From: a virus
Taxonomy: Duplodnaviria > Heunggongvirae > Uroviricota > Caudoviricetes
DNA length: 11,875 bases
Direction: 5' to 3' (one strand)
Virus record (IMG/VR): IMGVR_UViG_2698536366_000007
Position numbers and translations under genes: made by a program. The stretch's first letter is position 1. Each line of letters begins with the position of its first letter. Below, piece by piece: positions 1 through 11,875 of this stretch. The notes under the pieces were generated by a model, which saw only the letters and a program-made list of their open reading frames with translations, was not told the DNA's origin and made no database searches.

Positions 1-51
1 CTGCTTAAAAAAAGAACAAATGGTAGTGTCCGCTATTGCCAGTACACCTCA
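1..51 (+). mobile_element. IS600 (IS3 family) terminal 51 bp including the inverted repeat; the element body lies upstream of the window
   Basis: Reverse complement of 1-51 matches 8686-8736, the end of the complete IS600 copy, and ends in CCTCA; bases 6-8 TAA correspond to the orfB stop. Confidence 0.8.
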
Positions 52-250
52 TCCATCACCGAAAAAAATTGGCTTTTACACCATTGGCGATAAAAGCATT
101 TACCTGTATGACCTACGCCGCATGGATGAAATCATGGAGGCTCTTGATAATCGTTCGTCGATGGATTGGTGTGTTGCTGTTCATGATATGAATGCAGGGT
201 TTGATGAAAAGATTTTGTTCCCCTCATCAGTTGAAAGCACTGCGGGTTAA
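52..250 (+). pseudogene. 3' remnant of a phage gene truncated by the upstream IS600 (about 65 C-terminal codons, stop at 248-250)
   Basis: The open frame runs straight out of the IS600 end, so the ATG at 20 listed in the ORF track lies inside IS sequence; the downstream translation looks protein-like. Family not recognised. Confidence 0.4.
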
Positions 251-260
251 GGAGTAACAC

Positions 261-428
261 ATGACCACTATTACCAAAGAACGTATTGAATTGTTCATTA
301 AAAACCCGCTTGAAAACGGGCTTACCCGTGGTGAACAAATGGAACTGGCACGGATTGCGCTGGCATCGCTGGAAGCAGAGCCGGTTGTGTTCTGGTTTGA
401 AAAATATCAAGAAGGGGCTACGGCATGA
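261..428 (+). CDS. hypothetical small phage protein (55 aa)
   Basis: ATG at 261 preceded by AGGAG at 250-254; stop TGA 426-428 overlaps the next start (ATGA); shares the MTT(I/F)T(K/R)E N-terminus and the IAL-SL-AEP motif with the following ORF. Confidence 0.5.
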
Positions 429-769
429 CGACTTTTACCAGAGAGCAGTTAATAGCTCACGCAGAGGAGACTATTGAAGCACAGAGACTGTGCATACCGG
501 GCACAATCGACCATGACATCATCCGCACATATAAGATGGATATTGCTGTTCTGGAAATCGCACTGGTATCGCTGGCAGCAGAGCCAGCCGGTAAATTGCA
601 TGAATACAAACCAGTGGGATATCAGCGTCTGGTCGATGAGTTAACCATGCTGGTAAAGCAGTTAACCTGGCAACTGAGGAAAGCGAAGCCAGACTGCAAA
701 TTACCGGATAAGGCGATGAGTTATCTGGAGCGGAACGGACTGATAAGCGTGGAGGATATTTTACGATGA
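425..769 (+). CDS. hypothetical phage protein (114 aa), paralogous to the preceding 55-aa ORF
   Basis: ORF track; ATGA overlap with the upstream ORF and with the downstream 27-aa ORF; shared motifs with the 261-428 product. Confidence 0.55.
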
Positions 770-849
770 CCTGGCCTGAAGCATTAACAACGGTAGGAAT
801 TGCGATGGCGGTGGCGCTGGTGGTGTATTCGATTTGCCGCTGGGGATAA
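766..849 (+). CDS. small hydrophobic peptide (27 aa, [27 protein letters not shown]), predicted single transmembrane helix
   Basis: ATG 766 overlaps the upstream stop (ATGA); strong SD GGAGGA at 751-756 with 9-nt spacing; stop TAA 847-849. Below the ORF-track size cutoff. Confidence 0.45.
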
Positions 850-1003
850 AAACGGTTTGCGGGAAAAGGAGAGTTAAGTAGAATTGCAGCGGGTGCTTGA
901 GGCTATCTGTCTCAGGCATGAACACCAAAAGGCAGATAGAGAAAAGCCCCAGTTAACATTACGCGTCCGGCAAGACGCTTAACATTAATCTGAGGCTCAA
1001 TCT

Positions 1004-1216
1004 ATGAACGGCAAATCTAGGTTAGCCTCTTACGTGCCGAAAGGCAAGGAGAAGCAGGCTATGAAGCAGCAAAAGGCGATGTTAATCGCCCTGATCGTCA
1101 TCTGTTTAACCGTCATAGTGACGGCACTGGTAACGAGGAAAGACCTCTGCGAGGTACGAATTCGAACCGGCCAGACGGAGGTCGCTGTCTTCACAGCTTA
1201 CGAACCTGAGGAGTAA
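1004..1216 (+). CDS. hokD: Hok/Gef family type I toxin with in-frame mok-like N-terminal extension; core hok reading frame 1061-1216 (51 aa)
   Basis: Core translation MKQQKAMLIALIVICLTVIVTALVTRKDLCEVRIRTGQTEVAVFTAYEPEE matches, from memory, the HokD/RelF toxin; the leader carries hok-mRNA-like elements (GCTTGAGGC at 896-904; AGCCTCTTAC...GCAAGGAGAAG immediately before the ATG). Confidence 0.8.
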   Translation: MNGKSRLASYVPKGKEKQAMKQQKAMLIALIVICLTVIVTALVTRKDLCEVRIRTGQTEVAVFTAYEPEE

Positions 1217-1286
1217 GAGACCAGGCGGGGGAGAAATCCCTCGCCACCTCTGATGGGTCAGGCATCCTCAATGCACCCACACTTAA

Positions 1287-1311
1287 CCCGCTTCGGCGGG
1301 TTTTTGTTTTT
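1287..1311 (+). terminator. rho-independent terminator of the hok transcript
   Basis: Stem CCCGC / GCGGG with UUCG tetraloop (1287-1300) followed by TTTTTGTTTTT. Confidence 0.65.
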
Positions 1312-1436
1312 ATTTTCAACGCGTTTGAAGTTTTAGATGGTGCCGGAATAGAATCAAAAATACTTAAGTAGCGCGCAGGGAGAAGAGGGATGGACCCCGA
1401 ACAGGGGAGTGCTATTTATCTGGAAGGATTCTGTTG

Positions 1437-1718
1437 ATGAAAATCGAAGAATTACGTGAAATTTTTAGTGAAGATGGCCTCTATACTGTGCGCGTTGAGA
1501 ATGGCGCTATTGTCAGCCACTGCCTTCCAGACTACACAATTCTGATAATTCAGCCGTCTTTGCCAGCAGGCACGGGCGGCGCTCTCACGCATTTAAATCT
1601 GATTGGTACCAGCATCCCCCATGCACTGAAGAACAGGCCGAATGGCTCATTCAGTGTTACCGCAGGCGCGGATGCGAGGTTAAAAAAGCCCTTAGCCTCG
1701 ACTACCGTCACTGGATAA
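1437..1718 (+). CDS. hypothetical small protein, probably frameshifted (possible pseudogene); the protein-like C-terminus continues in another frame to 1792
   Basis: ATG 1437 (track start 1434 is TTG) with SD GGAAGGA at 1423-1429; downstream of the C5 run at 1616-1620 a different frame stays open to TAA 1790-1792 and reads protein-like, while the annotated frame becomes low-complexity. Confidence 0.4.
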   Translation: MKIEELREIFSEDGLYTVRVENGAIVSHCLPDYTILIIQPSLPAGTGGALTHLNLIGTSIPHALKNRPNGSFSVTAGADARLKKPLASTTVTG

Positions 1719-1793
1719 TCTCCGTCAGGCTCCCTTACTCCGAACGGCCAACGCGTCCGTCCCGCACATTCCAGCAACGGATCTGGAGGTAAT

Positions 1794-2852
1794 GTGCGGG
1801 TATTACTTCGACCTGTTCTGGTACCGGAACTCGGTCTGGTTATCGTTAAGCCAGGCCGTGAATCAATGTCAGCATTCCATAACGGCAGAATACTGGTGGA
1901 GCCGGAACCAAAAAGCATGCGTAATCTGCCGTCCGGGGTCGTTCCTGCCGCTCGCCAGCCGCTGGTGGAAGACAAAACATTGCTGCCGTTTTTCAGTAAC
2001 GCACGGGTGATTCGTGCTGCTGGTGGTGCTGGTGCATTGTCTGACTGGCTGTTGCGCCATATTAAATCCTGCCAGTGGCCACACGGCGATTATCATCACA
2101 GCGAAACCGTCATTCACCGTTATGGTACCGGCGCAATGGTGTTGTGCTGGCACTGCGACAACCAGCTGCGTGACCAGACATCCGAATCACTCGAGCAACT
2201 TGCTCATCAAAACCTGTCAGCATGGATGATTGACGTCATCGGTCACGCAATAAGCGGTACGCAGGAGCGTGAATTATCTCTGGCTGAATTATCCTGGTGG
2301 GCGGTCCGCAATCAGGTGGCGGACGCGCTACCGGAAGCGGTATTACGTCGTTCGCTGGGGTTGCGTGCGGAAAAAATTCGCTCTGTGTACAGTGAAAGCG
2401 ACATCATACCGGGAGAGCAGACAGCCACCAGCATACTGAAGCAGCGCACAAAAAATATTGCGTTACTGCCTCACGTCCACCAGCAACAGAACCCACCACA
2501 GGAAAAGACGGTGGTCAGCATTGCCGTTGATCCGGAGTCACCGGCTCAGTATCTCCAGCGCCAGAAATCACAACGGGAAGAGATGCCTGTATACACGCGC
2601 TGGGTAAAAACGCAGAAATGCATGACGTGTGGCAATCAGGCAGATGATCCGCATCACATCATTGGTCATGGACTGGGAGGGATGGGAACAAAGGCTGATG
2701 ATTTGTTTGTTATTCCGTTATGCCGTAAATGCCGTAACGAACTACATGCCGGAGTAAAAGATTTTGAAGAGAAACACGGCAGTCAGCTGTTGTTGCTGAT
2801 TCGTTTTTTAATGCACGCGAGAAATTCGGGTGTTCTGAAGTGGAAAGCATAA
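1794..2852 (+). CDS. DUF968-like prophage protein with C-terminal HNH/zinc-finger-like Cys/His cluster (YdfU-like)
   Basis: 352-aa ORF; C-terminal CMTCGNQADDPHHIIGHG...CRKCRNELH pattern; GTG start at 1794 after GGAGG (1785-1789); alternative ATG start at 1866 (MSAFHNG...). Confidence 0.75.
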   Translation: MRVLLRPVLVPELGLVIVKPGRESMSAFHNGRILVEPEPKSMRNLPSGVVPAARQPLVEDKTLLPFFSNARVIRAAGGAGALSDWLLRHIKSCQWPHGDYHHSETVIHRYGTGAMVLCWHCDNQLRDQTSESLEQLAHQNLSAWMIDVIGHAISGTQERELSLAELSWWAVRNQVADALPEAVLRRSLGLRAEKIRSVYSESDIIPGEQTATSILKQRTKNIALLPHVHQQQNPPQEKTVVSIAVDPESPAQYLQRQKSQREEMPVYTRWVKTQKCMTCGNQADDPHHIIGHGLGGMGTKADDLFVIPLCRKCRNELHAGVKDFEEKHGSQLLLLIRFLMHARNSGVLKWKA

Positions 2853-3233
2853 ATGACCGAGCGCATAGAATTTGTTTTACCTTACCCGCCGACGGTGAAC
2901 ACTTACTGGCGTCGTCGTGGCAGCACATATTTTGTATCAAAAGCCGGGGAGCGTTATCGCCGGGCAGTGGCGCTTATTGTTCGCCAGCAGCGGCTGAAAT
3001 TAAGCCTGTCCGGAAGGTTGGCAATAAAAATTATTGCAGAACCACCGGATAAGCGCCGCCGTGACCTGGACAATATTCTGAAAGCGCCGCTGGATGCGCT
3101 GACGCATGCGGGGTTGCTAATGGACGATGAGCAGTTTGATGAAATCAATATCGTTCGTGGTCAGCCAGTATCTGGTGGACGTCTGGGGGTGAAGATTTAT
3201 CCCATAATGCTTGAAGGGCAGGTCAAAAAATGA
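2853..3233 (+). CDS. rusA: RusA-like Holliday junction resolvase
   Basis: 126 aa with the RRRDLDN acidic motif and overall similarity to E. coli RusA; ATG immediately follows the upstream stop. Confidence 0.8.
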   Translation: MTERIEFVLPYPPTVNTYWRRRGSTYFVSKAGERYRRAVALIVRQQRLKLSLSGRLAIKIIAEPPDKRRRDLDNILKAPLDALTHAGLLMDDEQFDEINIVRGQPVSGGRLGVKIYPIMLEGQVKK

Positions 3234-4051
3234 AACTGGAAGATTTACCGAAATACTACTCCCCAAAATCCCCCGGCCTGACTGATGCATCGGCCTCAAC
3301 GTCGAAAGATGCGCTGAGTATCACTGATGTGATGGCCGCGCAGGGCATGACACAGAATCGGGCTGAGATGGGGGTTTCTGCGTTCCTTGGGAAAATGGGC
3401 ATTAGTATGAATGACAGAGAGCGGGCAACAGAATTGCTGACAGAATATGCACTCAGTCGGTGTGATCGCGTGGCGGCGTTAAGAAAACTCCCGGCAGAAA
3501 TAAAACCGGCAGTGATGCGTATTATGGCTTCGTATGCGTTTGAAGATTATGCCCGTAGCGCGGCGAGCAAAAAACAGTGCCCCTGCTGTCACGGAAAAAA
3601 ATTTATTGAAAGCGAGGTTTTTACAAACAAGATCCAGTATCCGGATGGTAAGCCGCCGGTATGGGCAAAGTGTACGAAAGGTGTGTATCCGTCTTACTGG
3701 GAAGAATGGAAAAAAGTCAGGGAGGTGGTAAAAGTTGCCTGTCCGGAGTGTGGCGGAAAGGGTGAGGTTTCCACCGCCTGTAAGGATTGCCGTGGGCGTG
3801 GTGTCGCCATTCATCGTGAAGAGTCGGTAAAACGTGGTATGCCTGTTATCAGAGACTGCCAGCGTTGTGGTGGTCGTGGCTATGAAAGACTACCATCAAC
3901 GGAGGCATTTAATGCTATATGCGAGGTGACAAACCAGATAACACGCGCGTCATGGGAAAAAACAGTTAAGAAATTTTATGATGCGCTGGTGACCCGGTTT
4001 GATATTGAAGAAGCATGGGCTGAGCGGCAGTTAAAAAAGGTAACTAGGTAA
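3230..4051 (+). CDS. Q: late-gene antitermination protein Q (phage 82/Qin type, zinc-binding)
   Basis: 273 aa; several CxxC pairs (CPCCHGKK, CPECGGKG, CKDCRGRG, CQRCGGRG); ATGA overlap with rusA; immediately followed by a PR'-like promoter and terminator. Confidence 0.8.
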   Translation: MKLEDLPKYYSPKSPGLTDASASTSKDALSITDVMAAQGMTQNRAEMGVSAFLGKMGISMNDRERATELLTEYALSRCDRVAALRKLPAEIKPAVMRIMASYAFEDYARSAASKKQCPCCHGKKFIESEVFTNKIQYPDGKPPVWAKCTKGVYPSYWEEWKKVREVVKVACPECGGKGEVSTACKDCRGRGVAIHREESVKRGMPVIRDCQRCGGRGYERLPSTEAFNAICEVTNQITRASWEKTVKKFYDALVTRFDIEEAWAERQLKKVTR

Positions 4052-4056
4052 CAAGG

Positions 4057-4084
4057 TTGATTTTTCCGGAATCTGTGGTAAATT
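4057..4084 (+). promoter_or_regulatory. candidate late promoter PR' (with qut region) downstream of Q
   Basis: -35 TTGATT (4057-4062), 16-bp spacer, extended -10 TGgTAAATT (4076-4084). Confidence 0.5.
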
Positions 4085-4133
4085 CGTCATAACGATGGGC
4101 GTTTTATGCCTGACGTTAGAAGAGTTTCTACAA

Positions 4134-4155
4134 CCCGCCGCCGAGCGGGTTTTTT
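4134..4155 (+). terminator. tR'-like intrinsic terminator
   Basis: CCCGC-cgccga-GCGGG stem-loop followed by TTTTTT, about 50 nt downstream of the PR' -10. Confidence 0.7.
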
Positions 4156-4275
4156 ATGACTGAAATCGCGTCAGTACAGTAAACGCGCTGGTGGCGGTGA
4201 ATACCTGTCTTTCAGCTTGCTGGCTTTTTCGACAAGAGTTATTGGTGTGTCACGTTAACCGGAAAAGGAAAAGAC

Positions 4276-4473
4276 ATGCTAAAACAGCAGGATATGACAG
4301 AAACCGCCAGAGTGGTGTTTAATGAATTAAGCGTTACCGAACCGGCGACAGTCGGGGAGATAGCGCAGAATACTTACCTTTCACGCGAACGCTGCCAGTT
4401 AATACTGACCCAGCTGGTTATGGCGGGTCTGGCAGACTATCAGTTCGGTTGTTACAGACGCCTTCCGCAGTGA
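4276..4473 (+). CDS. small hypothetical protein (65 aa), possible winged-helix DNA-binding protein
   Basis: ATG 4276 preceded by AAGGAAAAG; helix-turn-helix-like segment VGEIAQNTYLSRERCQLILTQL. Confidence 0.5.
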   Translation: MLKQQDMTETARVVFNELSVTEPATVGEIAQNTYLSRERCQLILTQLVMAGLADYQFGCYRRLPQ

Positions 4474-4484
4474 AGGCTTTTTTA
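4460..4484 (+). terminator. intrinsic terminator overlapping the stop of the 65-aa ORF
   Basis: Stem GCCTTC / GAAGGC with 6-nt loop followed by TTTTTTAT. Confidence 0.55.
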
Positions 4485-4500
4485 TTTGTGGTAAATGGGC

Positions 4501-4531
4501 GGCTGGTGGGTGTTAGGGGCACCCACCAGCC
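4501..4531. repeat. perfect 12-bp inverted repeat (GGCTGGTGGGTG ...7 nt... CACCCACCAGCC)
   Basis: Exact reverse-complement arms read directly from the sequence, between the 65-aa ORF and the methyltransferase. Confidence 0.8.
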
Positions 4532-4623
4532 ATCTGCTCATGCGTTGGGTTCACAAGCAAACCTCAGGCCCACTGCTTTGCGCAAAAGCAGAATGAGCCT
4601 ATCAGAGACAGGCTTAATGATCC

Positions 4624-5682
4624 ATGCTTAATACTGTAAAAATATCCAGTTGTGAGTTAATCAACGCCGACTGCCTGGAATTTATCCGGTCGTTACCCGA
4701 AAATTCTGTTGACCTGATAGTCACGGACCCGCCGTACTTTAAAGTGAAGCCTGAGGGCTGGGATAACCAGTGGAAGGGCGACGATGATTACCTGAAGTGG
4801 CTGGACCAGTGTCTGGCGCAGTTCTGGCGGGTGCTGAAACCTGCCGGAAGTCTTTACCTGTTCTGTGGTCATCGCCTGGCATCTGATATCGAAATCATGA
4901 TGCGTGAACGCTTCAGTGTGCTGAACCATATTATCTGGGCGAAGCCGTCCGGACGCTGGAACGGATGCAACAAGGAAAGCCTGCGGGCGTATTTCCCCGC
5001 CACAGAGCGCATTCTGTTCGCGGAACATTATCAGGGGCCGTATCGTCCGAAAGATGCCGGGTATGCGGCGAAGGGCAGTGCACTGAAACAGCATGTGATG
5101 GCCCCGCTGATTTCTTACTTTCGTGATGCGCGAGCTGCCCTGGGGATAACGGCAAAACAGATTGCAGATGCCACAGGAAAGAAAAACATGGTGTCGCACT
5201 GGTTCAGTGCCGGTCAGTGGCAGTTGCCGAATGAAAGCGATTATCTGAAATTACAGGCGCTGTTTGCCCGGGTGGCAGAAGAGAAGCATCGGCGTGGTGA
5301 ACTGGAAAAGCTCCACCACCAGCTGGTGGATACGTATACCTCACTGAACCGGCAGTATGCGGAGCTGCTGAGTGAATATAAACATCTGCGGCGGTATTTT
5401 GGCGTGACGGTGCAGGTGCCGTATACCGATGTGTGGACGCATAAACCGGTGCAGTTCTATCCCGGGAAACATCCGTGCGAAAAACCGGCAGAAATGCTGC
5501 AGCAGATAATCAGCGCTAGCAGTCGTCCGGGTGACCTGATTGCAGATTTTTTCATGGGGTTGGGTTCGACAGTGAAAGCGGCACTGGCGCTCGGGCGTCG
5601 TGCAATTGGCGTTGAGCTGGAGACTGAACGTTTTGAGCAGACGGTTCGGGAAGTACAGGATTTAGTCAGCCAGAACGGATGA
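4624..5682 (+). CDS. DNA methyltransferase, beta-class amino-MTase (N6-adenine or N4-cytosine), phage-borne and apparently orphan
   Basis: 352 aa; N-terminal DPPY motif (VDLIVTDPPY) and C-terminal FxGxG AdoMet motif (FFMGLGST); no restriction endonuclease partner seen in the window. Confidence 0.85.
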   Translation: MLNTVKISSCELINADCLEFIRSLPENSVDLIVTDPPYFKVKPEGWDNQWKGDDDYLKWLDQCLAQFWRVLKPAGSLYLFCGHRLASDIEIMMRERFSVLNHIIWAKPSGRWNGCNKESLRAYFPATERILFAEHYQGPYRPKDAGYAAKGSALKQHVMAPLISYFRDARAALGITAKQIADATGKKNMVSHWFSAGQWQLPNESDYLKLQALFARVAEEKHRRGELEKLHHQLVDTYTSLNRQYAELLSEYKHLRRYFGVTVQVPYTDVWTHKPVQFYPGKHPCEKPAEMLQQIISASSRPGDLIADFFMGLGSTVKAALALGRRAIGVELETERFEQTVREVQDLVSQNG

Positions 5683-5722
5683 TATTGAAGAATTAATTAC
5701 GCGTCGTTATTATGCGGCTCCC

Positions 5723-5798
5723 GGCCCTTTAGCTCAGTGGTGAGAGCGAGCGACTCATAATCGCCAGGTCGCTGGTTCAAATCCAGCAAGGGCCACCA
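5723..5798 (+). tRNA. ileZ: tRNA-Ile (anticodon CAU, ileX-like minor isoleucine tRNA), copy A
   Basis: Cloverleaf by eye: acceptor GGCCCTT/AAGGGCC, anticodon loop CTCATAA, T-arm GCTGG-TTCAAAT-CCAGC, encoded CCA; close to E. coli ileX. Confidence 0.85.
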
Positions 5799-5805
5799 TC
5801 ACATA

Positions 5806-5882
5806 CCGCCATTAGCTCATCAGGAAAGAGCGCCAGCCTTCGAAGCTGGCTGCGCGGGGTTCAAGTCCCCGATGGCGGTCCA
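5806..5882 (+). tRNA. argN: tRNA-Arg (anticodon UCG), copy A
   Basis: Acceptor CCGCCAT/ATGGCGG, anticodon stem CCAGC/GCTGG with loop CTTCGAA, T-arm CGGGG-TTCAAGT-CCCCG, encoded CCA. Confidence 0.75.
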
Positions 5883-5895
5883 TTATCTGCATCAT

Positions 5896-5972
5896 GCGTT
5901 GTTAGCTCAGCCGGACAGAGCAATTGCCTTCTAAGCAATCGGTCACTGGTTCGAATCCAGTACAACGCGCCA
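5896..5972 (+). tRNA. argO: tRNA-Arg (anticodon UCU), copy A
   Basis: Acceptor GCGTTGT/ACAACGC, anticodon stem ATTGC/GCAAT with loop CTTCTAA, T-arm ACTGG-TTCGAAT-CCAGT, encoded CCA. Confidence 0.85.
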
Positions 5973-5986
5973 CACTTATTTTCCCT

Positions 5987-6012
5987 GGCTCGCTTTTGCG
6001 GGCCTTTTTTTT
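5987..6012 (+). terminator. candidate intrinsic terminator after tRNA cluster copy A
   Basis: Imperfect GC stem (GGCtCGC / GCGGGCC) followed by a T8 run. Confidence 0.45.
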
Positions 6013-6416
6013 AAATGTCTCACAATTCAGACGGTTGACAGTTGTCTGTTTTGCGGGGAGTTTGTTAAAAGAAACTGGCATGGTGAATCCCCCTGTGCGG
6101 AGGGGCAATCAGCGAGTAGGTATATGGGATAATCGCGGATTCAGGTGCTGGTACTGAATTCACCGGGAGGCACCCGGCATCATGCAATGGCACATAGCGC
6201 CACTCTCCAGCCCTCTCCGGAGGGGCTTTTCTGTGCCGGATACATCACAGTTTCTGGAACCTTAGGTACTACAGTATCAGTCAGGGTGCTATATTTTCAG
6301 ATGTGATGAAAGCCTGTCAGCAGGCAGGGCGTATCGGAAATGACCCAGTAGAGAAAACGTTGACTCAGATACCGGTGCTGAGTTACCGGGAAACCGGCAT
6401 CACATGACCGCTATCC
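6011..6416 (+). repeat. conserved non-coding element X, copy A (core 6011-6227 shared by all three copies; 6228-6416 shared with copy B only)
   Basis: Near-identical to 8281-8685 and, for the core, to 10923-11130; no convincing ORF; contains TTGACA at 6035-6040 and two GC hairpins sharing CGGAGGGG. Confidence 0.7.
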
Positions 6417-6814
6417 TGAGGTGTACTGGCAATAGCGGACACTACCATTTGTTCTTTTTTTAAGCAGCCATCTGATGATATTTTTCCCTGAAGGCTGCCG
6501 GGGAGATATTCCCCAGACGAGAGTGACGACGCTGACGATTGTAGAAAATCTCAATGTATTCCCGTATTACTGAGATGGCTTCATCCCGGTTATTAAAACG
6601 ATAGTGGCTCAGGCTCTCATTTTTCAGCGTTCCCCAGAAGCTTTCCATCGGAGCGTTGTCGTAACAGTTACCTTTACGCGACATTGATGTTTTCAGACCA
6701 GACTGCTCCTGTATGACCCGGTAATCGTATGCGCAGTACTGTGAACCTCGATCAGAGTGGTGGATTAGCCCGGCAGGTGGGCGCTGGCTCCTGAGCGCCA
6801 TAAACAGGGCTTTA
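6417..6814 (-). mobile_element. IS600 fragment (398 bp from the orfB end, including the terminal inverted repeat)
   Basis: Matches 8686-8083 of the complete copy, then switches abruptly into Q coding sequence at 6815. Confidence 0.85.
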
Positions 6815-7232
6815 TCCAGTATCCGGATGGTAAGCCGCCGGTATGGGCAAAGTGTACGAAAGGTGTGTATCCGTCTTACTGGGAAGAATGGAAAAAAGTC
6901 AGGGAGGTGGTAAAAGTTGCCTGTCCGGAGTGTGGCGGAAAGGGTGAGGTTTCCACCGCCTGTAAGGATTGCCGTGGGCGTGGTGTCGCCATTCATCGTG
7001 AAGAGTCGGTAAAACGTGGTATGCCTGTTATCAGAGACTGCCAGCGTTGTGGTGGTCGTGGCTATGAAAGACTACCATCAACGGAGGCATTTAATGCTAT
7101 ATGCGAGGTGACAAACCAGATAACACGCGCGTCATGGGAAAAAACAGTTAAGAAATTCTATGATGCGCTGGTGACTCGGTTTGATATTGAAGAAGCATGG
7201 GCTGAGCGGCAGTTAAAAAAGGTAACTAGGTT
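6815..7232 (+). pseudogene. 3' fragment of a second Q antiterminator gene (about 139 codons), stop codon lost through a small deletion
   Basis: About 99% identical to 3634-4051, with SNPs and a 6-bp deletion that removes the stop; fused to the IS600 fragment. Confidence 0.8.
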
Positions 7233-7258
7233 GATTTTTCCGGAATCTGTGGTAAATT
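7231..7258 (+). promoter_or_regulatory. second copy of the PR'-like promoter
   Basis: Same -35 TTGATT and extended -10 TGgTAAATT as at 4057-4084. Confidence 0.45.
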
Positions 7259-7307
7259 CGTCATAACTATGGGCGTTTTATGCCTGACGTTAGAAGAGTT
7301 TCTACAA

Positions 7308-7329
7308 CCCGCCGCCGAGCGGGTTTTTT
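7308..7329 (+). terminator. second copy of the tR'-like terminator
   Basis: Same CCCGC-cgccga-GCGGG stem plus T-run as at 4134-4155. Confidence 0.65.
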
Positions 7330-7368
7330 ATTGCGGAATTAATTACGGACCGTTATTATTCTGCTCCC

Positions 7369-7444
7369 GGCCCTTTAGCTCAGTGGTGAGAGCGAGCGAC
7401 TCATAATCGCCAGGTCGCTGGTTCAAATCCAGCAAGGGCCACCA
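7369..7444 (+). tRNA. ileZ: tRNA-Ile (CAU), copy B
   Basis: Identical to 5723-5798. Confidence 0.85.
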
Positions 7445-7451
7445 TCACAAA

Positions 7452-7531
7452 CCGCCATTAGCTTATCAGGAAGAGCAGACGACACGATAACAGGGTTGTT
7501 GGTGCGGGGGCGGGTCCCCGATGGCGGTCCA
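7452..7531 (+). pseudogene. degenerate tRNA-Arg-like sequence (probable tRNA pseudogene), copy B
   Basis: Acceptor and D arms match the copy-A tRNA-Arg(UCG), but the anticodon arm is replaced by unrelated sequence and the T-loop lacks TTCRA. Confidence 0.6.
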
Positions 7532-7544
7532 TTATCGGTATTCA

Positions 7545-7621
7545 GCGTTGTTAGCTCAGCCGGACAGAGCAATTGCCTTCTAAGCAATCGGTCACTGGTT
7601 CGAATCCAGTACAGCGCGCCA
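7545..7621 (+). tRNA. argO: tRNA-Arg (UCU), copy B
   Basis: Same as 5896-5972 with one acceptor-stem change (A to G, giving a G-U pair). Confidence 0.8.
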
Positions 7622-7731
7622 TATTCATTCTTCCAGATTCCTTCCGGCAGAGCCTTATACTGAAATATACCTGGCTCAGGATATTGTTGAAAATATTTTA
7701 TGTTTGTCAAAAATAAAAGTTCTGTTAAGTA

Positions 7732-8085
7732 TTGATTGAGTGTTTGTTATACGGTCTAATGGTTTTTTCAGCATTAAATATTTATCATTCATATGGTGTG
7801 GGTAGAGTGAATATTGATGAGGCGTCGGGGTGTTTCATCCTTAGGCAGCGTATTGATATAGTCAATGCAGCACGAGCAAAGGCCTTCAGCCGTTTGACAG
7901 TTTTGTTCTGTACTCCTGATCGTCTTTCGGGAAGAGACGTTATTATTCTGAATAGTGATGCTATACAGAGGGTTTGCGATGAGTTCATGGTTGCTAATTC
8001 AGAATTATTTGCTCTTGTTCAGGAGTACAACAGAATAGCCAGGACCTGTGGTATGGATGAACTTCGGATTACTCATCTGGGGTAG
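7732..8085 (+). CDS. hypothetical cargo protein (up to 117 aa) in AT-rich DNA, copy 1; start codon uncertain
   Basis: Longest ORF in the post-tRNA slot; track start 7732 is TTG, first in-frame ATG at 7759, in-frame GTGs at 7798 and 7807; no strong SD; no family recognised. Confidence 0.45.
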   Translation: MIECLLYGLMVFSALNIYHSYGVGRVNIDEASGCFILRQRIDIVNAARAKAFSRLTVLFCTPDRLSGRDVIILNSDAIQRVCDEFMVANSELFALVQEYNRIARTCGMDELRITHLG

Positions 8086-8280
8086 ATACATATCTGGATT
8101 ATCACCTGTTACGGTAAAAAGTGATTGCTTACTGTTTTTGTGAATGGCATTGCAGCAGCCGGATAATGTCAGTGCTGGCTGACGGTGTGCTGGTGGCGGG
8201 TGTGGTGGTTGTTGCTTTCCCGTTGCTGAAAAAGAAAACGCCAGACTGTTAGCCGGGTATCAGTTAGCGGGAGAAATTTT

Positions 8281-8685
8281 TAAATACTTCACAATTCAGG
8301 CGGTTGACTGTTGTCTGGTTTGCGGGGAGTTTGTTAAAAGAAACTGGCATGGTGAATCCCCCTGTGCGGAGGGGCAATCAGCGAGTAGGTATATGGGATA
8401 ATCGCGGATTCAGGTGCTGGTACTGAATTCACCGGGAGGCACCCGGCATCATGCAATGGCACATAGCGCCACTCTCCAGCCCTCTCCGGAGGGGCTTTTC
8501 TGTGCCGGATACATCACAGTTTCTGGAACCTTAGGTACTACAGTATCAGTCAGGGTGCTATATTTTCAGATGTGATGAAAGCCTGTCAGCAGGCAGGGCG
8601 TATCGGAAATGACCCAGTAGAGAAAACGTTGACTCAGATACCGGTGCTGAGTTACCGGGAAACCGGCATCACATGACCGCTATCC
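8281..8685 (+). repeat. conserved non-coding element X, copy B
   Basis: Matches 6011-6416 (SNPs in the first 40 bp, identical thereafter up to the IS600 junction). Confidence 0.7.
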
Positions 8686-8728
8686 TGAGGTGTACTGGCA
8701 ATAGCGGACACTACCATTTGTTCTTTTT

Positions 8729-9547
8729 TTAAGCAGCCATCTGATGATATTTTTCCCTGAAGGCTGCCGGGGAGATATTCCCCAGACGAGAGTGACGACG
8801 CTGACGATTGTAGAAAATCTCAATGTATTCCCGTATTACTGAGATGGCTTCATCCCGGTTATTAAAACGATAGTGGCTCAGGCTCTCATTTTTCAGCGTT
8901 CCCCAGAAGCTTTCCATCGGAGCGTTGTCGTAACAGTTACCTTTACGCGACATTGATGTTTTCAGACCAGACTGCTCCTGTATGACCCGGTAATCGTATG
9001 CGCAGTACTGTGAACCTCGATCAGAGTGGTGGATTAGCCCGGCAGGTGGGCGCTGGCTCCTGAGCGCCATAAACAGGGCTTTACCTGTCAGCTCTTTTGT
9101 CATGCGCTCTCCCATGGCGTAGCCGACAATTTCGCACGTATAAACATCTTTGATGCCAGCGAGGTACAACCATCCCTCCTGTGTGGCAACATACGTCAGG
9201 TCCGCCACCCAGACCTGATTTGGTGCTGTAGGAGCGAACGTCTGGTTCAGCAGATTTGGCGCAACTGGCAGATTGTGGTTCGAGTTCGTAGTCGCTCTGA
9301 ACTTGCGTTTCTGCTTACAGCGTAGCCTTAGCTCCTTACGAAGACGTGCCAGTCGGTCACGACCAACGATGATGCCATTCTCTGCCAGCTCCGTCTGGAG
9401 CCGCCGGGTTCCATATGTTTCGCGAGTGCGGATATGTGCCACCTTAATCTCCAGTTTTAGCCGCTCATCACTTTGTTTTCTGTCTGAGGGTTCATGCTGT
9501 ACCCAGTTGTAATAACCGCTCCTGGATACACCAAATACCTGACACAT
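8729..9547 (-). CDS. IS600 transposase OrfB (DDE integrase domain), expressed as an OrfAB fusion by -1 frameshifting
   Basis: 272 aa from the first ATG; IS3-family OrfB sequence; the frame is open upstream into the orfA 3' end. Confidence 0.9.
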   Translation of the reverse strand: MCQVFGVSRSGYYNWVQHEPSDRKQSDERLKLEIKVAHIRTRETYGTRRLQTELAENGIIVGRDRLARLRKELRLRCKQKRKFRATTNSNHNLPVAPNLLNQTFAPTAPNQVWVADLTYVATQEGWLYLAGIKDVYTCEIVGYAMGERMTKELTGKALFMALRSQRPPAGLIHHSDRGSQYCAYDYRVIQEQSGLKTSMSRKGNCYDNAPMESFWGTLKNESLSHYRFNNRDEAISVIREYIEIFYNRQRRHSRLGNISPAAFREKYHQMAA

Positions 9548-9582
9548 CGCTTCAATGGGAAATTGTTGTCGCCATTGTTCGA

Positions 9583-9885
9583 TTAACGCGTATTTTTCAG
9601 CGACTCCTGTGCAAAATACGCTGTTGCTTTTTTTAATATATCTCGCTCAAGGCGAGCTTCATTTAACGCCTTACGCAGTTGCAGAATTTCAGATTCCAGT
9701 TCAGCCACCGTGCGGGAACCAGGAGTACCGAGCCCTTTTCTGGCGGCGGTAACCCATTGTCCTAAAGTGCCTTCAGGAAGAGATAATCGGGAAGCGCCTT
9801 CACTGATCGAAAGTTGATTTTCAAGAACCGTTCTGACAGCTTCGGCTTTGAACTCTTTAGAGTAACGTTGGGTTTTTCTGCTCAT
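9583..9885 (-). CDS. IS600 transposase OrfA (helix-turn-helix / leucine zipper)
   Basis: 100 aa; A AAA AAG slippery heptamer on the coding strand (plus-strand T7 run at 9628-9634) near its 3' end. Confidence 0.9.
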   Translation of the reverse strand: MSRKTQRYSKEFKAEAVRTVLENQLSISEGASRLSLPEGTLGQWVTAARKGLGTPGSRTVAELESEILQLRKALNEARLERDILKKATAYFAQESLKNTR

Positions 9886-10001
9886 TATTAGCTCCTTCTG
9901 ATGCCATTCTATTTCAGGAAGGAGTGTCCGTTAAACTCAGGCTACCTCAAGGGTGGTTTTTTATTGCGGAATTAATTACGGACCGTTATTATTCTGCTCC
10001 C

Positions 10002-10077
10002 GGCCCTTTAGCTCAGTGGTGAGAGCGAGCGACTCATAATCGCCAGGTCGCTGGTTCAAATCCAGCAAGGGCCACCA
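10002..10077 (+). tRNA. ileZ: tRNA-Ile (CAU), copy C
   Basis: Identical to 7369-7444. Confidence 0.85.
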
Positions 10078-10084
10078 TCACAAA

Positions 10085-10164
10085 CCGCCATTAGCTTATC
10101 AGGAAGAGCAGACGACACGATAACAGGGTTGTTGGTGCGGGGGCGGGTCCCCGATGGCGGTCCA
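10085..10164 (+). pseudogene. degenerate tRNA-Arg-like sequence, copy C
   Basis: Identical to 7452-7531. Confidence 0.6.
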
Positions 10165-10177
10165 TTATCGGTATTCA

Positions 10178-10254
10178 GCGTTGTTAGCTCAGCCGGACAG
10201 AGCAATTGCCTTCTAAGCAATCGGTCACTGGTTCGAATCCAGTACAGCGCGCCA
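10178..10254 (+). tRNA. argO: tRNA-Arg (UCU), copy C
   Basis: Identical to 7545-7621. Confidence 0.8.
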
Positions 10255-10364
10255 TATTCATTCTTCCAGATTCCTTCCGGCAGAGCCTTATACTGAAATA
10301 TACCTGGCTCAGGATATTGTTGAAAATATTTTATGTTTGTCAAAAATAAAAGTTCTGTTAAGTA

Positions 10365-10718
10365 TTGATTGAGTGTTTGTTATACGGTCTAATGGTTTTT
10401 TCAGCATTAAATATTTATCATTCATATGGTGTGGGTAGAGTGAATATTGATGAGGCGTCGGGGTGTTTCATCCTTAGGCAGCGTATTGATATAGTCAATG
10501 CAGCACGAGCAAAGGCCTTCAGCCGTTTGACAGTTTTGTTCTGTACTCCTGATCGTCTTTCGGGAAGAGACGTTATTATTCTGAATAGTGATGCTATACA
10601 GAGGGTTTGCGATGAGTTCATGGTTGCTAATTCAGAATTATTTGCTCTTGTTCAGGAGTACAACAGAATAGCCAGGACCTGTGGTATGGATGAACTTCGG
10701 ATTACTCATCTGGGGTAG
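10365..10718 (+). CDS. hypothetical cargo protein (up to 117 aa), copy 2
   Basis: Identical to 7732-8085. Confidence 0.45.
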   Translation: MIECLLYGLMVFSALNIYHSYGVGRVNIDEASGCFILRQRIDIVNAARAKAFSRLTVLFCTPDRLSGRDVIILNSDAIQRVCDEFMVANSELFALVQEYNRIARTCGMDELRITHLG

Positions 10719-10922
10719 ATACATATCTGGATTATCACCTGTTACGGTAAAAAGTGATTGCTTACTGTTTTTGTGAATGGCATTGCAGCAGCCGGATAAT
10801 GTCAGTGCTGGCTGACGGTGTGCTGGTGGCGGGTGTGGTGGTTGTTGCTTTCCCGTTGCTGAAAAAGAAAACGCCAGACTGTTAGCCGGGTATCAGTTAG
10901 CGGGAGAAATTTTTAAATACTT

Positions 10923-11130
10923 CACAATTCAGGCGGTTGACTGTTGTCTGGTTTGCGGGGAGTTTGTTAAAAGAAACTGGCATGGTGAATCCCCCTGTGC
11001 GGAGGGGCAATCAGCGAGTAGGTATATGGGATAATCGCGGATTCAGGTGCTGGTACTGAATTCACCGGGAGGCACCCGGCACCATGCAATGGCACATAGC
11101 GCCACTCTCCAGCCCCTCTCCGGAGGGGCT
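10923..11130 (+). repeat. conserved non-coding element X, copy C (core only)
   Basis: Matches the 6011-6227 core with two differences, then diverges into unique AT-rich sequence. Confidence 0.7.
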
Positions 11131-11162
11131 GTTTATATTGATTTTGTCAGATGTGAGTAAAC

Positions 11163-11196
11163 TCCTTATGGACTTTGTTGTTTTAGTCCATAAGGA
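11163..11196. terminator. perfect 12-bp stem hairpin (TCCTTATGGACT ...10 nt... AGTCCATAAGGA), probable terminator for the minus-strand ORF
   Basis: Exact inverted repeat overlapping the stop of the 11166-11501 minus-strand ORF; U-tract is weak on both strands. Confidence 0.5.
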
Positions 11197-11501
11197 CATA
11201 TTTGCAGAGTGCAACGGTTATTAAAGCATTCATTCAATACGTTATCTGTATTTGTAGGGCATTCCTGGCTATTTTTGATTGAATTCCAGAATGTTTTATT
11301 GAATGGTACTACGTTGTAAATGGTTACAGGTAGCACTTTGTTATTGAGCATGATGCCTGTGTGAGTCAGTGTAAATATACTTTCAGGAGGTAAGAAAGCA
11401 TCCGATTGATACCAGATTATTAATTTTATTTTACTCCATATGACTGAAAAAGATATTCCGCATGATGGCTGGATAACTGTATCAATCACAATCCACTTCA
11501 T
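11166..11501 (-). CDS. hypothetical protein (111 aa) in an AT-rich island, oriented against late transcription; moron-like
   Basis: ATG with SD AAGGA at 6-nt spacing on the minus strand; hairpin at its 3' end; AT-rich codon usage distinct from the phage backbone; no family recognised. Confidence 0.5.
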
Positions 11502-11761
11502 TTAGTTTCCTTGTTTATGCCTTGCTGGTGATGTTCTGAAAAGTATAAATGATATTTTTGAATGTAAACCATAGAGCAGAATTATTTTTCTGATGTTGTT
11601 TATTGTTTATTTAAATGCAGGGTGGTTTATATCTCGTCTTGTAGTTTATCCATGCATATCTGCTTGATAATCAGGTTTTTATTTAAGGTATGGTTTTGTG
11701 TTTTTTCTGTATTACATGTCAGGTATTTTAAAGAATTATTTTTCAGATGGTGGAAAGAACC

Positions 11762-11875
11762 ATGGCATTTAAACACTATGATGTTGTCAGGGCGGCGCCG
11801 CCGTCAGATCTTGCGGAAAAGCTGACACATAAACTGAAAGAGGGCTGGCAGCCGTTTGGTAGTCCGGTGGCCATA
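11762..11875 (+). CDS. 5' end of a conserved lambdoid late-region protein (possibly DUF1737-like), continuing beyond the window
   Basis: ATG 11762 (MAFKHYDVVRAAPPSDLAEKLTHKLKEGWQPFGSPVAI...) with a purine-rich stretch upstream; GC content returns to backbone level; family assignment is from memory. Confidence 0.55.
   Translation, partial: MAFKHYDVVRAAPPSDLAEKLTHKLKEGWQPFGSPVAI

Follow-up and report, generated by a model that had tools for sequence, protein, structure and literature searches.

Introduction

Tandem amplification of phage cargo between insertion sequences (IS) has been documented in Shigella dysenteriae type 1, where the IS600-flanked stx region is spontaneously amplified in tandem and deleted (McDonough & Butterton, 1999, Mol Microbiol 34:1058, cited in PMC7819885). 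That region belongs to a defective lambdoid prophage, occupies the slot downstream of the antiterminator gene Q bracketed by direct IS600 copies, and forms tandems with IS600 at the joint; its units are identical IS-to-IS amplicons produced by IS×IS exchange, and their copy number varies between isolates. In this study, we analysed an 11,875-nt stretch of DNA (hereafter the window) filed as a Caudoviricetes virus (Duplodnaviria; Heunggongvirae; Uroviricota) under IMG/VR record IMGVR_UViG_2698536366_000007, which carries a 2633-bp tandem repeat in the same slot, in defective lambdoid prophage sequence, with direct IS600 copies on its sides and IS600 at its joint. The window departs from the stx region in that the ends of its units differ, its joints are illegitimate or lie within homology of the Q gene and of the small RNA (sRNA) gene STnc100, and its cargo consists of tRNAs and an sRNA rather than a toxin.

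The slot itself is conserved. In Escherichia coli 042 and other intact prophages the order Q, terminator, tRNAs, ORF108 (ORF, open reading frame), DUF3927, STnc100, iraM, DUF1737, holin and lysozyme is maintained, and the module from Q to iraM is single-copy in the E. coli prophages listed (042 and many others), with ~99% identity per unit. STnc100 has been treated as a marker of Stx-like prophage regions (preprint, bioRxiv 10.64898/2026.05.13.724894). The window shares the gene order and the 99% identity per unit with this Q-tRNA-moron-lysis region of lambdoid and Stx prophages, and it differs from the single-copy 042-type region in having part of it doubled and fused to a second prophage's version.

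IS-rich Shigella genomes rearrange constantly. The duplication literature on Salmonella and E. coli also describes tandem duplications formed at microhomologies or short junctions, as well as template-switch rearrangements of the type attributed to microhomology-mediated break-induced replication (MMBIR) or fork stalling and template switching (FoSTeS). We found no S. sonnei IS600/prophage duplication described in the literature. For the window we favour, with a probability of roughly 0.55, a recent, strain-private duplication formed by microhomology joins together with homologous exchange between two prophage remnants of S. sonnei, P1 and P2.

Geometry and content of the tandem repeat

Self-BLAST and a repeat search identify 7322-8499 and 9955-11134 as a direct repeat (1178/1180 nt, 99.75% identity) with a period of 2633 bp. 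An earlier note on this DNA had described a direct tandem repeat of that period 3′ of the Q antiterminator with IS600 at the joint, and this description stands. The bounds it gave to the copies needed correction, since the homologous units are those just named, the IS600 occupies 8686-9949, and 5 nt (AGGGT) precede copy C. The two copies differ at three places rather than at the two small differences first counted, and all three lie in the 3′ part of what the note called element X, being a base change (T at 8449, C at 11082) and single-nucleotide indels following 8480 and 8497. Rfam identifies this element as the prophage sRNA STnc100 (RF02076), with three full-length matches in the window (model positions 1-206) that score 132.4, 123.6 (copy A) and 122.5 bits (copy B) against a gathering score of 47. 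The duplicated module contains the following features:

7322-8499, + strand: repeat copy B (self-comparison)
9955-11134, + strand: repeat copy C (self-comparison; ARAGORN, ORF and Rfam content)
7369-7444 and 7545-7621, + strand: copy B tRNA(CAU)/Ile and tRNA-Arg(UCU) (ARAGORN, Rfam)
10002-10077 and 10178-10254, + strand: copy C tRNA(CAU) and tRNA-Arg(UCU) (ARAGORN, Rfam)
7732-8085, + strand: 117-aa ORF of copy B, 108 aa from the ATG at 7759; hypothetical phage protein, PHROG 2873
10365-10718, + strand: 117-aa ORF of copy C
8121-8252, + strand: DUF3927 small protein of copy B, 43 aa (PGAP [Prokaryotic Genome Annotation Pipeline] name in relatives; Pfam DUF3927 in related loci; phrog_1470)
10754-10885, + strand: DUF3927 small protein of copy C
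8318-8507, + strand: STnc100 of copy B, a P2/P1 chimera (Rfam, 122.5 bits; pattern of single-nucleotide polymorphisms [SNPs])
10951-11140, + strand: STnc100 of copy C (Rfam)

The left edge of the repeat (7322/9955) lies inside a terminator, 508 bp from a truncated IS600 in copy B and 5 nt from IS600 in copy C. Its right edge (8499/11134) is not a breakpoint; it coincides with a natural mosaic boundary just past the STnc100 terminator, where P1-type and P2-type sequences diverge. Two further pairs make three overlapping direct-repeat pairs in the window, with spacings of 3182, 2269 and 2633. STnc100 plus the first 398 nt of IS600 recur with a spacing of 2269 (6008-6814 and 8277-9083, 99.3%, with full identity from 6050 onward), and the 3′ part of the Q gene recurs with a spacing of 3182 (3632-4157 and 6814-7331, 97.9%). 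A third version of the module, copy A (5683-6416), shares 88% identity with copies B and C over the tRNAs and 96% over STnc100.

The module lies between the Q antiterminator and the lysis genes, past the terminator and with phage tRNAs, as is typical of the lambdoid accessory (moron) slot. The synteny downstream of Q bears out the earlier identification of the repeated unit with that slot, and the toxin cargo associated with such slots is not carried here. The DNA past copy C, regarded earlier as unique and AT-rich, is iraM and part of the conserved module.

Two source prophages

The window is, judging by its alignments, a composite of two decayed lambdoid prophages of S. sonnei. Positions 1-6814 match the ompW-side remnant P1 at 99.96-99.99% identity in seven complete S. 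sonnei chromosomes. This part supplies Q1, a methyltransferase, three tRNAs, STnc100 and P1's own IS600 insertion ("delta"). Everything from 6815 on comes from P2 except the IS600 and a P1-type STnc100 tail, with 9955-11875 being 100% identical, and 6815-8499 99.8% identical, to the single-copy P2 locus (L025 and L032; the L numbers are ours for the loci compared). P2 sits between an ipaH/IS21 region and cmoAB and has an intact 284-aa Q2 and one module copy, followed by a DUF1737 fragment and then by another IS600 just 11 nt past the window end. In CP104423.1, P1 lies at 1.86 Mb and P2 at 2.53 Mb in the same orientation, ~670 kb apart. The P1 features that set copy A apart are:

3230-4051, + strand: Q1, antitermination protein Q of P1, 273 aa (Pfam Antiterm, 1.6e-53)
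4624-5682, + strand: N6/N4 DNA methyltransferase of P1, 352 aa, absent from copies B and C (Pfam N6_N4_Mtase, 7.9e-42)
5723-5972, + strand: tRNA cluster of copy A, tRNA(CAU), tRNA-Arg(UCG) and tRNA-Arg(UCU) (ARAGORN, Rfam tRNA)
6049-6238, + strand: STnc100 of copy A, P1 type (Rfam RF02076, 123.6 bits)

The surroundings of Q1 are 99.97% identical in S. sonnei P1 loci, and the exact methyltransferase protein is present in S. sonnei chromosomes. Copy A is related to B and C, keeps the methyltransferase and lacks the 117-aa ORF, as had been noted. Its interpretation as an older unit of the same amplification is ruled out, since it is the P1 version and belongs to a different prophage remnant that lies ~670 kb from P2 in other S. 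sonnei.

The possibility that nothing was duplicated, and that two more independent prophages lying side by side contributed their late regions as B and C, with A from a third, draws on the ~99% identity of the module across E. coli lambdoid prophages, which means that near-identity alone is no proof of duplication. We regard it as scarcely credible. Copy B (up to 8318) and copy C are each 100% identical to a single S. sonnei P2 locus, including a polymorphic allele, and each S. sonnei P2 locus aligned has one such module. Copy C also has neither Q nor upstream phage genes and starts in mid-terminator at the IS600 end. The allele in question is the G at 7413/10046, which is polymorphic among S. 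sonnei and is borne by both copies, as fits copies of one template; E. coli homologues differ at 7-11 sites. The polymorphism (G/A) falls inside the tRNA(CAU) gene, and about half of the S. sonnei loci read have A.

STnc100 of copy B bears a trace of contact between the two prophages. Its 5′ SNPs (8286-8318) are P2-type, as in copy C, and its three 3′ differences from copy C (8449, after 8480 and after 8497) are P1-type, as in copy A. Because the flanking SNPs are P2-type on the 5′ side and P1-type on the 3′ side, the switch is placed within the 130-nt identical core (8319-8448), and this pattern shows a homologous P1×P2 exchange inside that core. The sequence beyond it is also P1's:

8500-8685, + strand: P1-type tail past STnc100 of copy B, 186 nt, ending at P1's IS600 site (TCC); 100% identical to 6231-6416

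A joining of P1 on the left to P2 on the right need not mean that the intervening 670 kb were lost, since gene conversion may move patches between P1 and P2 without deleting what lies between them, and such patch exchange would be possible because IS600 copies flank both prophages. In one natural isolate (LR213449.1, L011), the genes normally found to the right of P2's IS600 "beta" (Dam ... 203-aa ORF) lie directly to the left of P1's "gamma" IS600 (L011 1-5385; L024 3595-9570). This arrangement shows an IS600 gamma/beta-mediated rearrangement that links the P1 and P2 neighbourhoods.

IS600 copies and the amplification model

Three IS600 sequences are represented in the window:

8686-9949, − strand: complete IS600, 1264 bp, with orfA (9583-9885) and orfB (8729-9547) both intact
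6417-6814, − strand: truncated IS600, P1's delta, nt 1-398 from the right inverted repeat (IRR) end, cut inside orfB; 100% identical to 8686-9083
1-51, + strand: last 51 nt (IRR end) of the IS600 gamma, the rest of which precedes the window; matches 6417-6467 and 8686-8736 perfectly in inverted orientation

The complete copy agrees with IS600 of the IS3 family, an element of ~1264 bp with terminal inverted repeats and with orfA and orfB joined by a frameshift (Pfam HTH_Tnp_1, 1.5e-20; rve DDE domain, 8.7e-26), is 99.8-100% identical to other S. sonnei IS600 and has a PGAP homologue named 'IS3-like element IS600 family transposase'. In S. sonnei loci L004-L011, gamma is present as a full-length IS600.

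No 3-bp target duplication flanks the complete copy, which has TCC (8683-8685) on its left and AGG (9950-9952) on its right. Its left junction is that of P1's own delta insertion, here fused to the chimeric STnc100. The delta insertion site is empty in strain 53G and carries a clean TCC duplication in L004. Because the same left junction has TCC on both sides in L004 and TCC/AGG here, the IS600 at 8686-9949 is a recombinant (hybrid) copy and not a simple insertion. A further IS600 near P2, "alpha", was considered as the donor of the AGG flank and ruled out, since the flank at its left inverted repeat (IRL) is CGG. Flanks were read for five IS600 copies at P1/P2 loci, and delta alone keeps its target duplication; for this reason IS×IS recombination looks routine at these loci. 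The window resembles IS-driven rearrangement in Shigella in this loss of target duplications from most IS600 at the P1/P2 loci and in the gamma/beta rearrangement of L011. It differs from the simple IS×IS exchanges of that general pattern in that it also has joints outside IS. Some P2-side IS600 copies contain an IS1, alpha at IS600 nt ~751-759 (L025/L027/L032, ~17110-17880) and beta in 53G at nt ~139-148 (L026 8698-9466).

These observations bear directly on the model put forward in the earlier note, in which unequal homologous recombination between two direct IS600 copies amplified the cargo module that they enclose. Three IS600 in the same orientation do bracket copies B and C (6417-6814, 8686-9949 and the one 11 nt past the window end in related genomes), and the IS600-flanked stx amplification is a documented precedent (McDonough & Butterton, 1999, as cited in PMC7819885). 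However, the model expects identical IS-to-IS units, and the two units, 6815-8685 and 9950-~11886, differ at both ends, with copy B having 508 bp of Q sequence and a P1-type tail, and copy C having AGGGT, iraM and the DUF1737 fragment. The first IS600 has an internal truncation and an illegitimate joint, no IS end coincides with the left edge of the repeat, and the chimeric STnc100 needs a P1×P2 exchange. In other words, the IS copies have the orientation of an IS-flanked amplicon, but the unit edges are not at IS ends and the joint is not the product of IS×IS exchange alone. With the missing target duplication added, this leaves the IS600-bounded amplification very improbable, and on the sequence evidence we reject unequal crossing-over between flanking IS600 copies as the origin.

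The junctions J1 and J3

The array carries two illegitimate joints, J1 and J3, which involve these features:

6815-7321, + strand: Q′, the 3′ 452 nt of a Q gene (ORF 6865-7266) and the left half of the terminator
7306-7329, + strand: intrinsic-terminator-like hairpin and T-run, 40 nt past the Q stop (terminator scan; fold −11.2 kcal/mol)
11619-11628, + strand: AGGGTGGTTT, second copy of the J3 10-mer and possible template of the 5-nt filler; native to P2-type prophages

At J1 (6814/6815), IS600 breaks off at nt 398 and Q sequence follows, the two sharing no more than 1 nt of microhomology where GGGCTTTA on the left meets TCCAGTATCC on the right. From 6815 on, Q′ is 100% identical to P2 in L025 and L032. 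Q′ begins at the first base, that is the left edge, of a 343-nt block over which Q1 and Q2 are identical (6814/6815 vs 3632/3633). This edge is a natural mosaic boundary that is also found in an E. coli P1-like prophage (L044), which rules out the idea that the Q1/Q2 identity block is the product of a conversion limited by J1. J1 falls exactly on this block edge. The 133-aa product of Q′ matches only ~2.4-kb draft contigs that start inside the Q block and is thus silent on J1. Further along, the 3′ end of Q1 (3856-4157) is P2-like in S. sonnei, with 3 substitutions and an 8-bp indel relative to Q2, and in the otherwise near-identical E. coli L044 the same Q 3′ region (10378-11305) has ~50 differing sites. 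This comparison is suggestive of an older exchange, from P2 to P1, in that part of Q within the S. sonnei lineage.

At J3, the IS600 end is followed by AGGGT (9950-9954) and then by P2 sequence from inside the 3′ arm of the terminator. The AGGGT is not P2 sequence at that place. AGGGT and the next 5 nt form the 10-mer AGGGTGGTTT; a second copy of it lies downstream of iraM (11619-11628), and chance alone would yield 0.04 matches. J3 thus reads as a GGTTT-microhomology joint, either with 5 templated nt or as the possible trace of an earlier 1.67-kb tandem duplication in which 11623 was joined to 7322. J3 would be an IS-adjacent deletion if the AGGGT site belonged to the right flank of P1, and this was ruled out since the 10-mer is absent from that flank. 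What had been called a tR′ remnant corresponds to the terminator-like hairpin at 7306-7329; the B/C repeat starts inside its 3′ arm and omits the 5′ arm. At J3, the IS600 terminal repeat, the filler AGGGTGG and the T-run (9939-9965) fold as a new terminator-like hairpin (−10.4 kcal/mol) that stands in for the native one (−11.2), whose 5′ arm is gone at the junction.

The joints are also where an assembly artefact has to be weighed, in which the assembly of an ordinary S. sonnei genome, with P1 and P2 far apart and single-copy, would have concatenated different paths through its repeat graph. We consider this unlikely, though by no means negligible. The start of Q′ at the first base of the 343-nt Q1/Q2 block is close to where S. 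sonnei short-read draft contigs also begin (P0159, L014-L023), and the P2-to-P1 switch of copy B falls within the 130-nt shared STnc100 core, where draft contig L023 ends. Both of these positions would also be expected from a wrong walk through the assembly graph and so count against a genuine duplication. Copies B and C show no divergence from P2, and the structure is absent from the 12 P2 and 10 P1 loci of S. sonnei that were aligned, as an artefact would predict. On the other side, a graph walk requires an overlap of k-1 at each join, and J1 and J3 have none. The ~50 IS600 alignments compared show no variation at IS600 nt 398, which leaves a graph node edge arising from an IS600 SNP without support. 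With its match 1.67 kb away, the 5-nt filler has the look of a joint made biologically, by microhomology or templating, rather than by an assembler. In addition, accuracy in the remainder of the window is 99.97-100% and three IS600 sequences are read through, implying long-read or finished data.

Occurrence in other genomes

Neither J1, J3 nor any intermediate was found in 5,426 complete E. coli genomes, GTDB species representatives, IMG/VR, JGI metagenomes, the gene index or the protein database, and this too weighs against a duplication that has taken place in a living lineage. Junction-spanning ORFs had no second instance, by exact sequence or by homology, in the gene index and the protein database. 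No complete E. coli genome holds more than 66% of 6300-11400 in one place. The locus set of S. sonnei consisted of 10 P1 and 12 P2 loci, ~25 further places with the same neighbouring genes being left out of it. Comparison with related strains had been proposed as a check on copy number, and none of these 22 loci, fetched and aligned, has a second copy of the module; P2 is single-copy in all 12 of its loci. The related complete genomes and drafts that were read have one module copy each, with the caveat that short-read drafts would collapse a duplication.

Possible routes of formation

Under the favoured duplication, the P2 module downstream of Q, comprising tRNA-Ile(CAU), tRNA-Arg(UCU), ORF108, DUF3927 and STnc100, would have been copied by way of two illegitimate joints, J1 and J3, that represent backward jumps, with the template alternating between P1 and P2 through their longest identical blocks. 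A second P1×P2 exchange, in addition to the one in STnc100, probably took place inside the 343-nt identical Q block. A stepwise route would begin with a microhomology-mediated tandem duplication of ~1.67 kb; IS600 would then insert at an AGG target, the STnc100-IS600 of P1 would serve as donor for ectopic gene conversion, and J1 would be joined last. Such a route needs four or more private events, a further point that tells against the duplication as we propose it. Alternatively, the same structure could have arisen at one stroke, during replication that changed template several times between P1 and P2.

In its strongest form, the latter would derive the whole A-B-C structure from one episode of template switching during replication (MMBIR or chromoanasynthesis-like), an interpretation that we offer tentatively and judge improbable. 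A nascent strand would have alternated between homeologous remnants that are normally 670 kb apart, with homology switches in the Q block and the STnc100 core and with two backward microhomology jumps, one of them with a 5-nt templated insertion. The window resembles events of the MMBIR/FoSTeS type in its joints with 0-5 nt of microhomology, in a short insertion copied from nearby, in backward jumps that give overlapping direct repeats and in the alternation of two homeologous templates. It differs from those cases in that it is known from sequence alone. The probability left after the duplication and artefact readings is assigned to other or mixed histories.

Possible consequences

If the duplication is real, the strain would carry one extra copy each of the rare-codon tRNAs tRNA-Ile(CAU) and tRNA-Arg(UCU), predicted to decode AUA and AGA/AGG, and of STnc100, ORF108 and DUF3927. 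Gene dosage could conceivably alter how AT-rich, rare-codon genes are translated. Through the three overlapping direct-repeat pairs, RecA-dependent recombination would be expected to collapse or expand the region, and instability of the copy number of the array, raised as a possibility in the earlier note, is plausible in principle. It would also indicate that decayed prophages exchange sequence through short identical blocks, such as the 130-nt sRNA core and the 343-nt Q block, and not only through IS. Should the single template-switching event be true, the window would document, in a natural bacterium, a complex rearrangement with multiple junctions that prophage homeology had seeded. The locus looks like another instance of ordinary IS- and prophage-driven scrambling of Shigella genomes, with unusually informative junctions; it carries no new function or toxin and leaves current understanding unchanged. 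Apparent "IS-flanked amplifications" in IS-dense genomes call for junction-level inspection and read support before they are interpreted as such.

Other features of the window

In total, the window contains seven phage tRNA genes and three STnc100 genes in 5.5 kb. ARAGORN assigns tRNA(CAU) to Met, and PGAP labels it tRNA-Ile in homologous, identical E. coli loci. A tRNA-Ile2 has a CAU anticodon and reads AUA after lysidine modification. The 117-aa ORF matches phrog_2873 at 3.8e-70, a family of unknown function, and PGAP mostly leaves this ORF unannotated. All of its named homologs come from Escherichia or Shigella, the majority of matches being unnamed. The exact 108-aa product is found in 7,259 blocks, with one copy, after Q, in each of the 10 places listed. 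The gene that follows copy C is as follows:

11166-11501, − strand: iraM, anti-adapter protein IraM, 111 aa (PGAP name in E. coli relatives)

The exact IraM protein sits at the P2 locus in all 10 places listed.

Within the P1 part, the G at 3160 (in rusA) is the sole position in 1-6814 that is unlike all ten S. sonnei P1 loci read, which have C; G is the common allele in E. coli prophages. The 53G-like S. sonnei loci (L008, L012 and L013, 6651-6902) have an extra 250 bp at window position 1524/1525 that is lacking from the window and the other P1 loci. P1 also carries a hok/sok type I toxin-antitoxin locus, with a Rfam sok match of 112 bits (891-1066) and a Hok-family ORF (1004-1216), followed by a weak isrK-like match at 1225-1306 (25.7 bits, under threshold).

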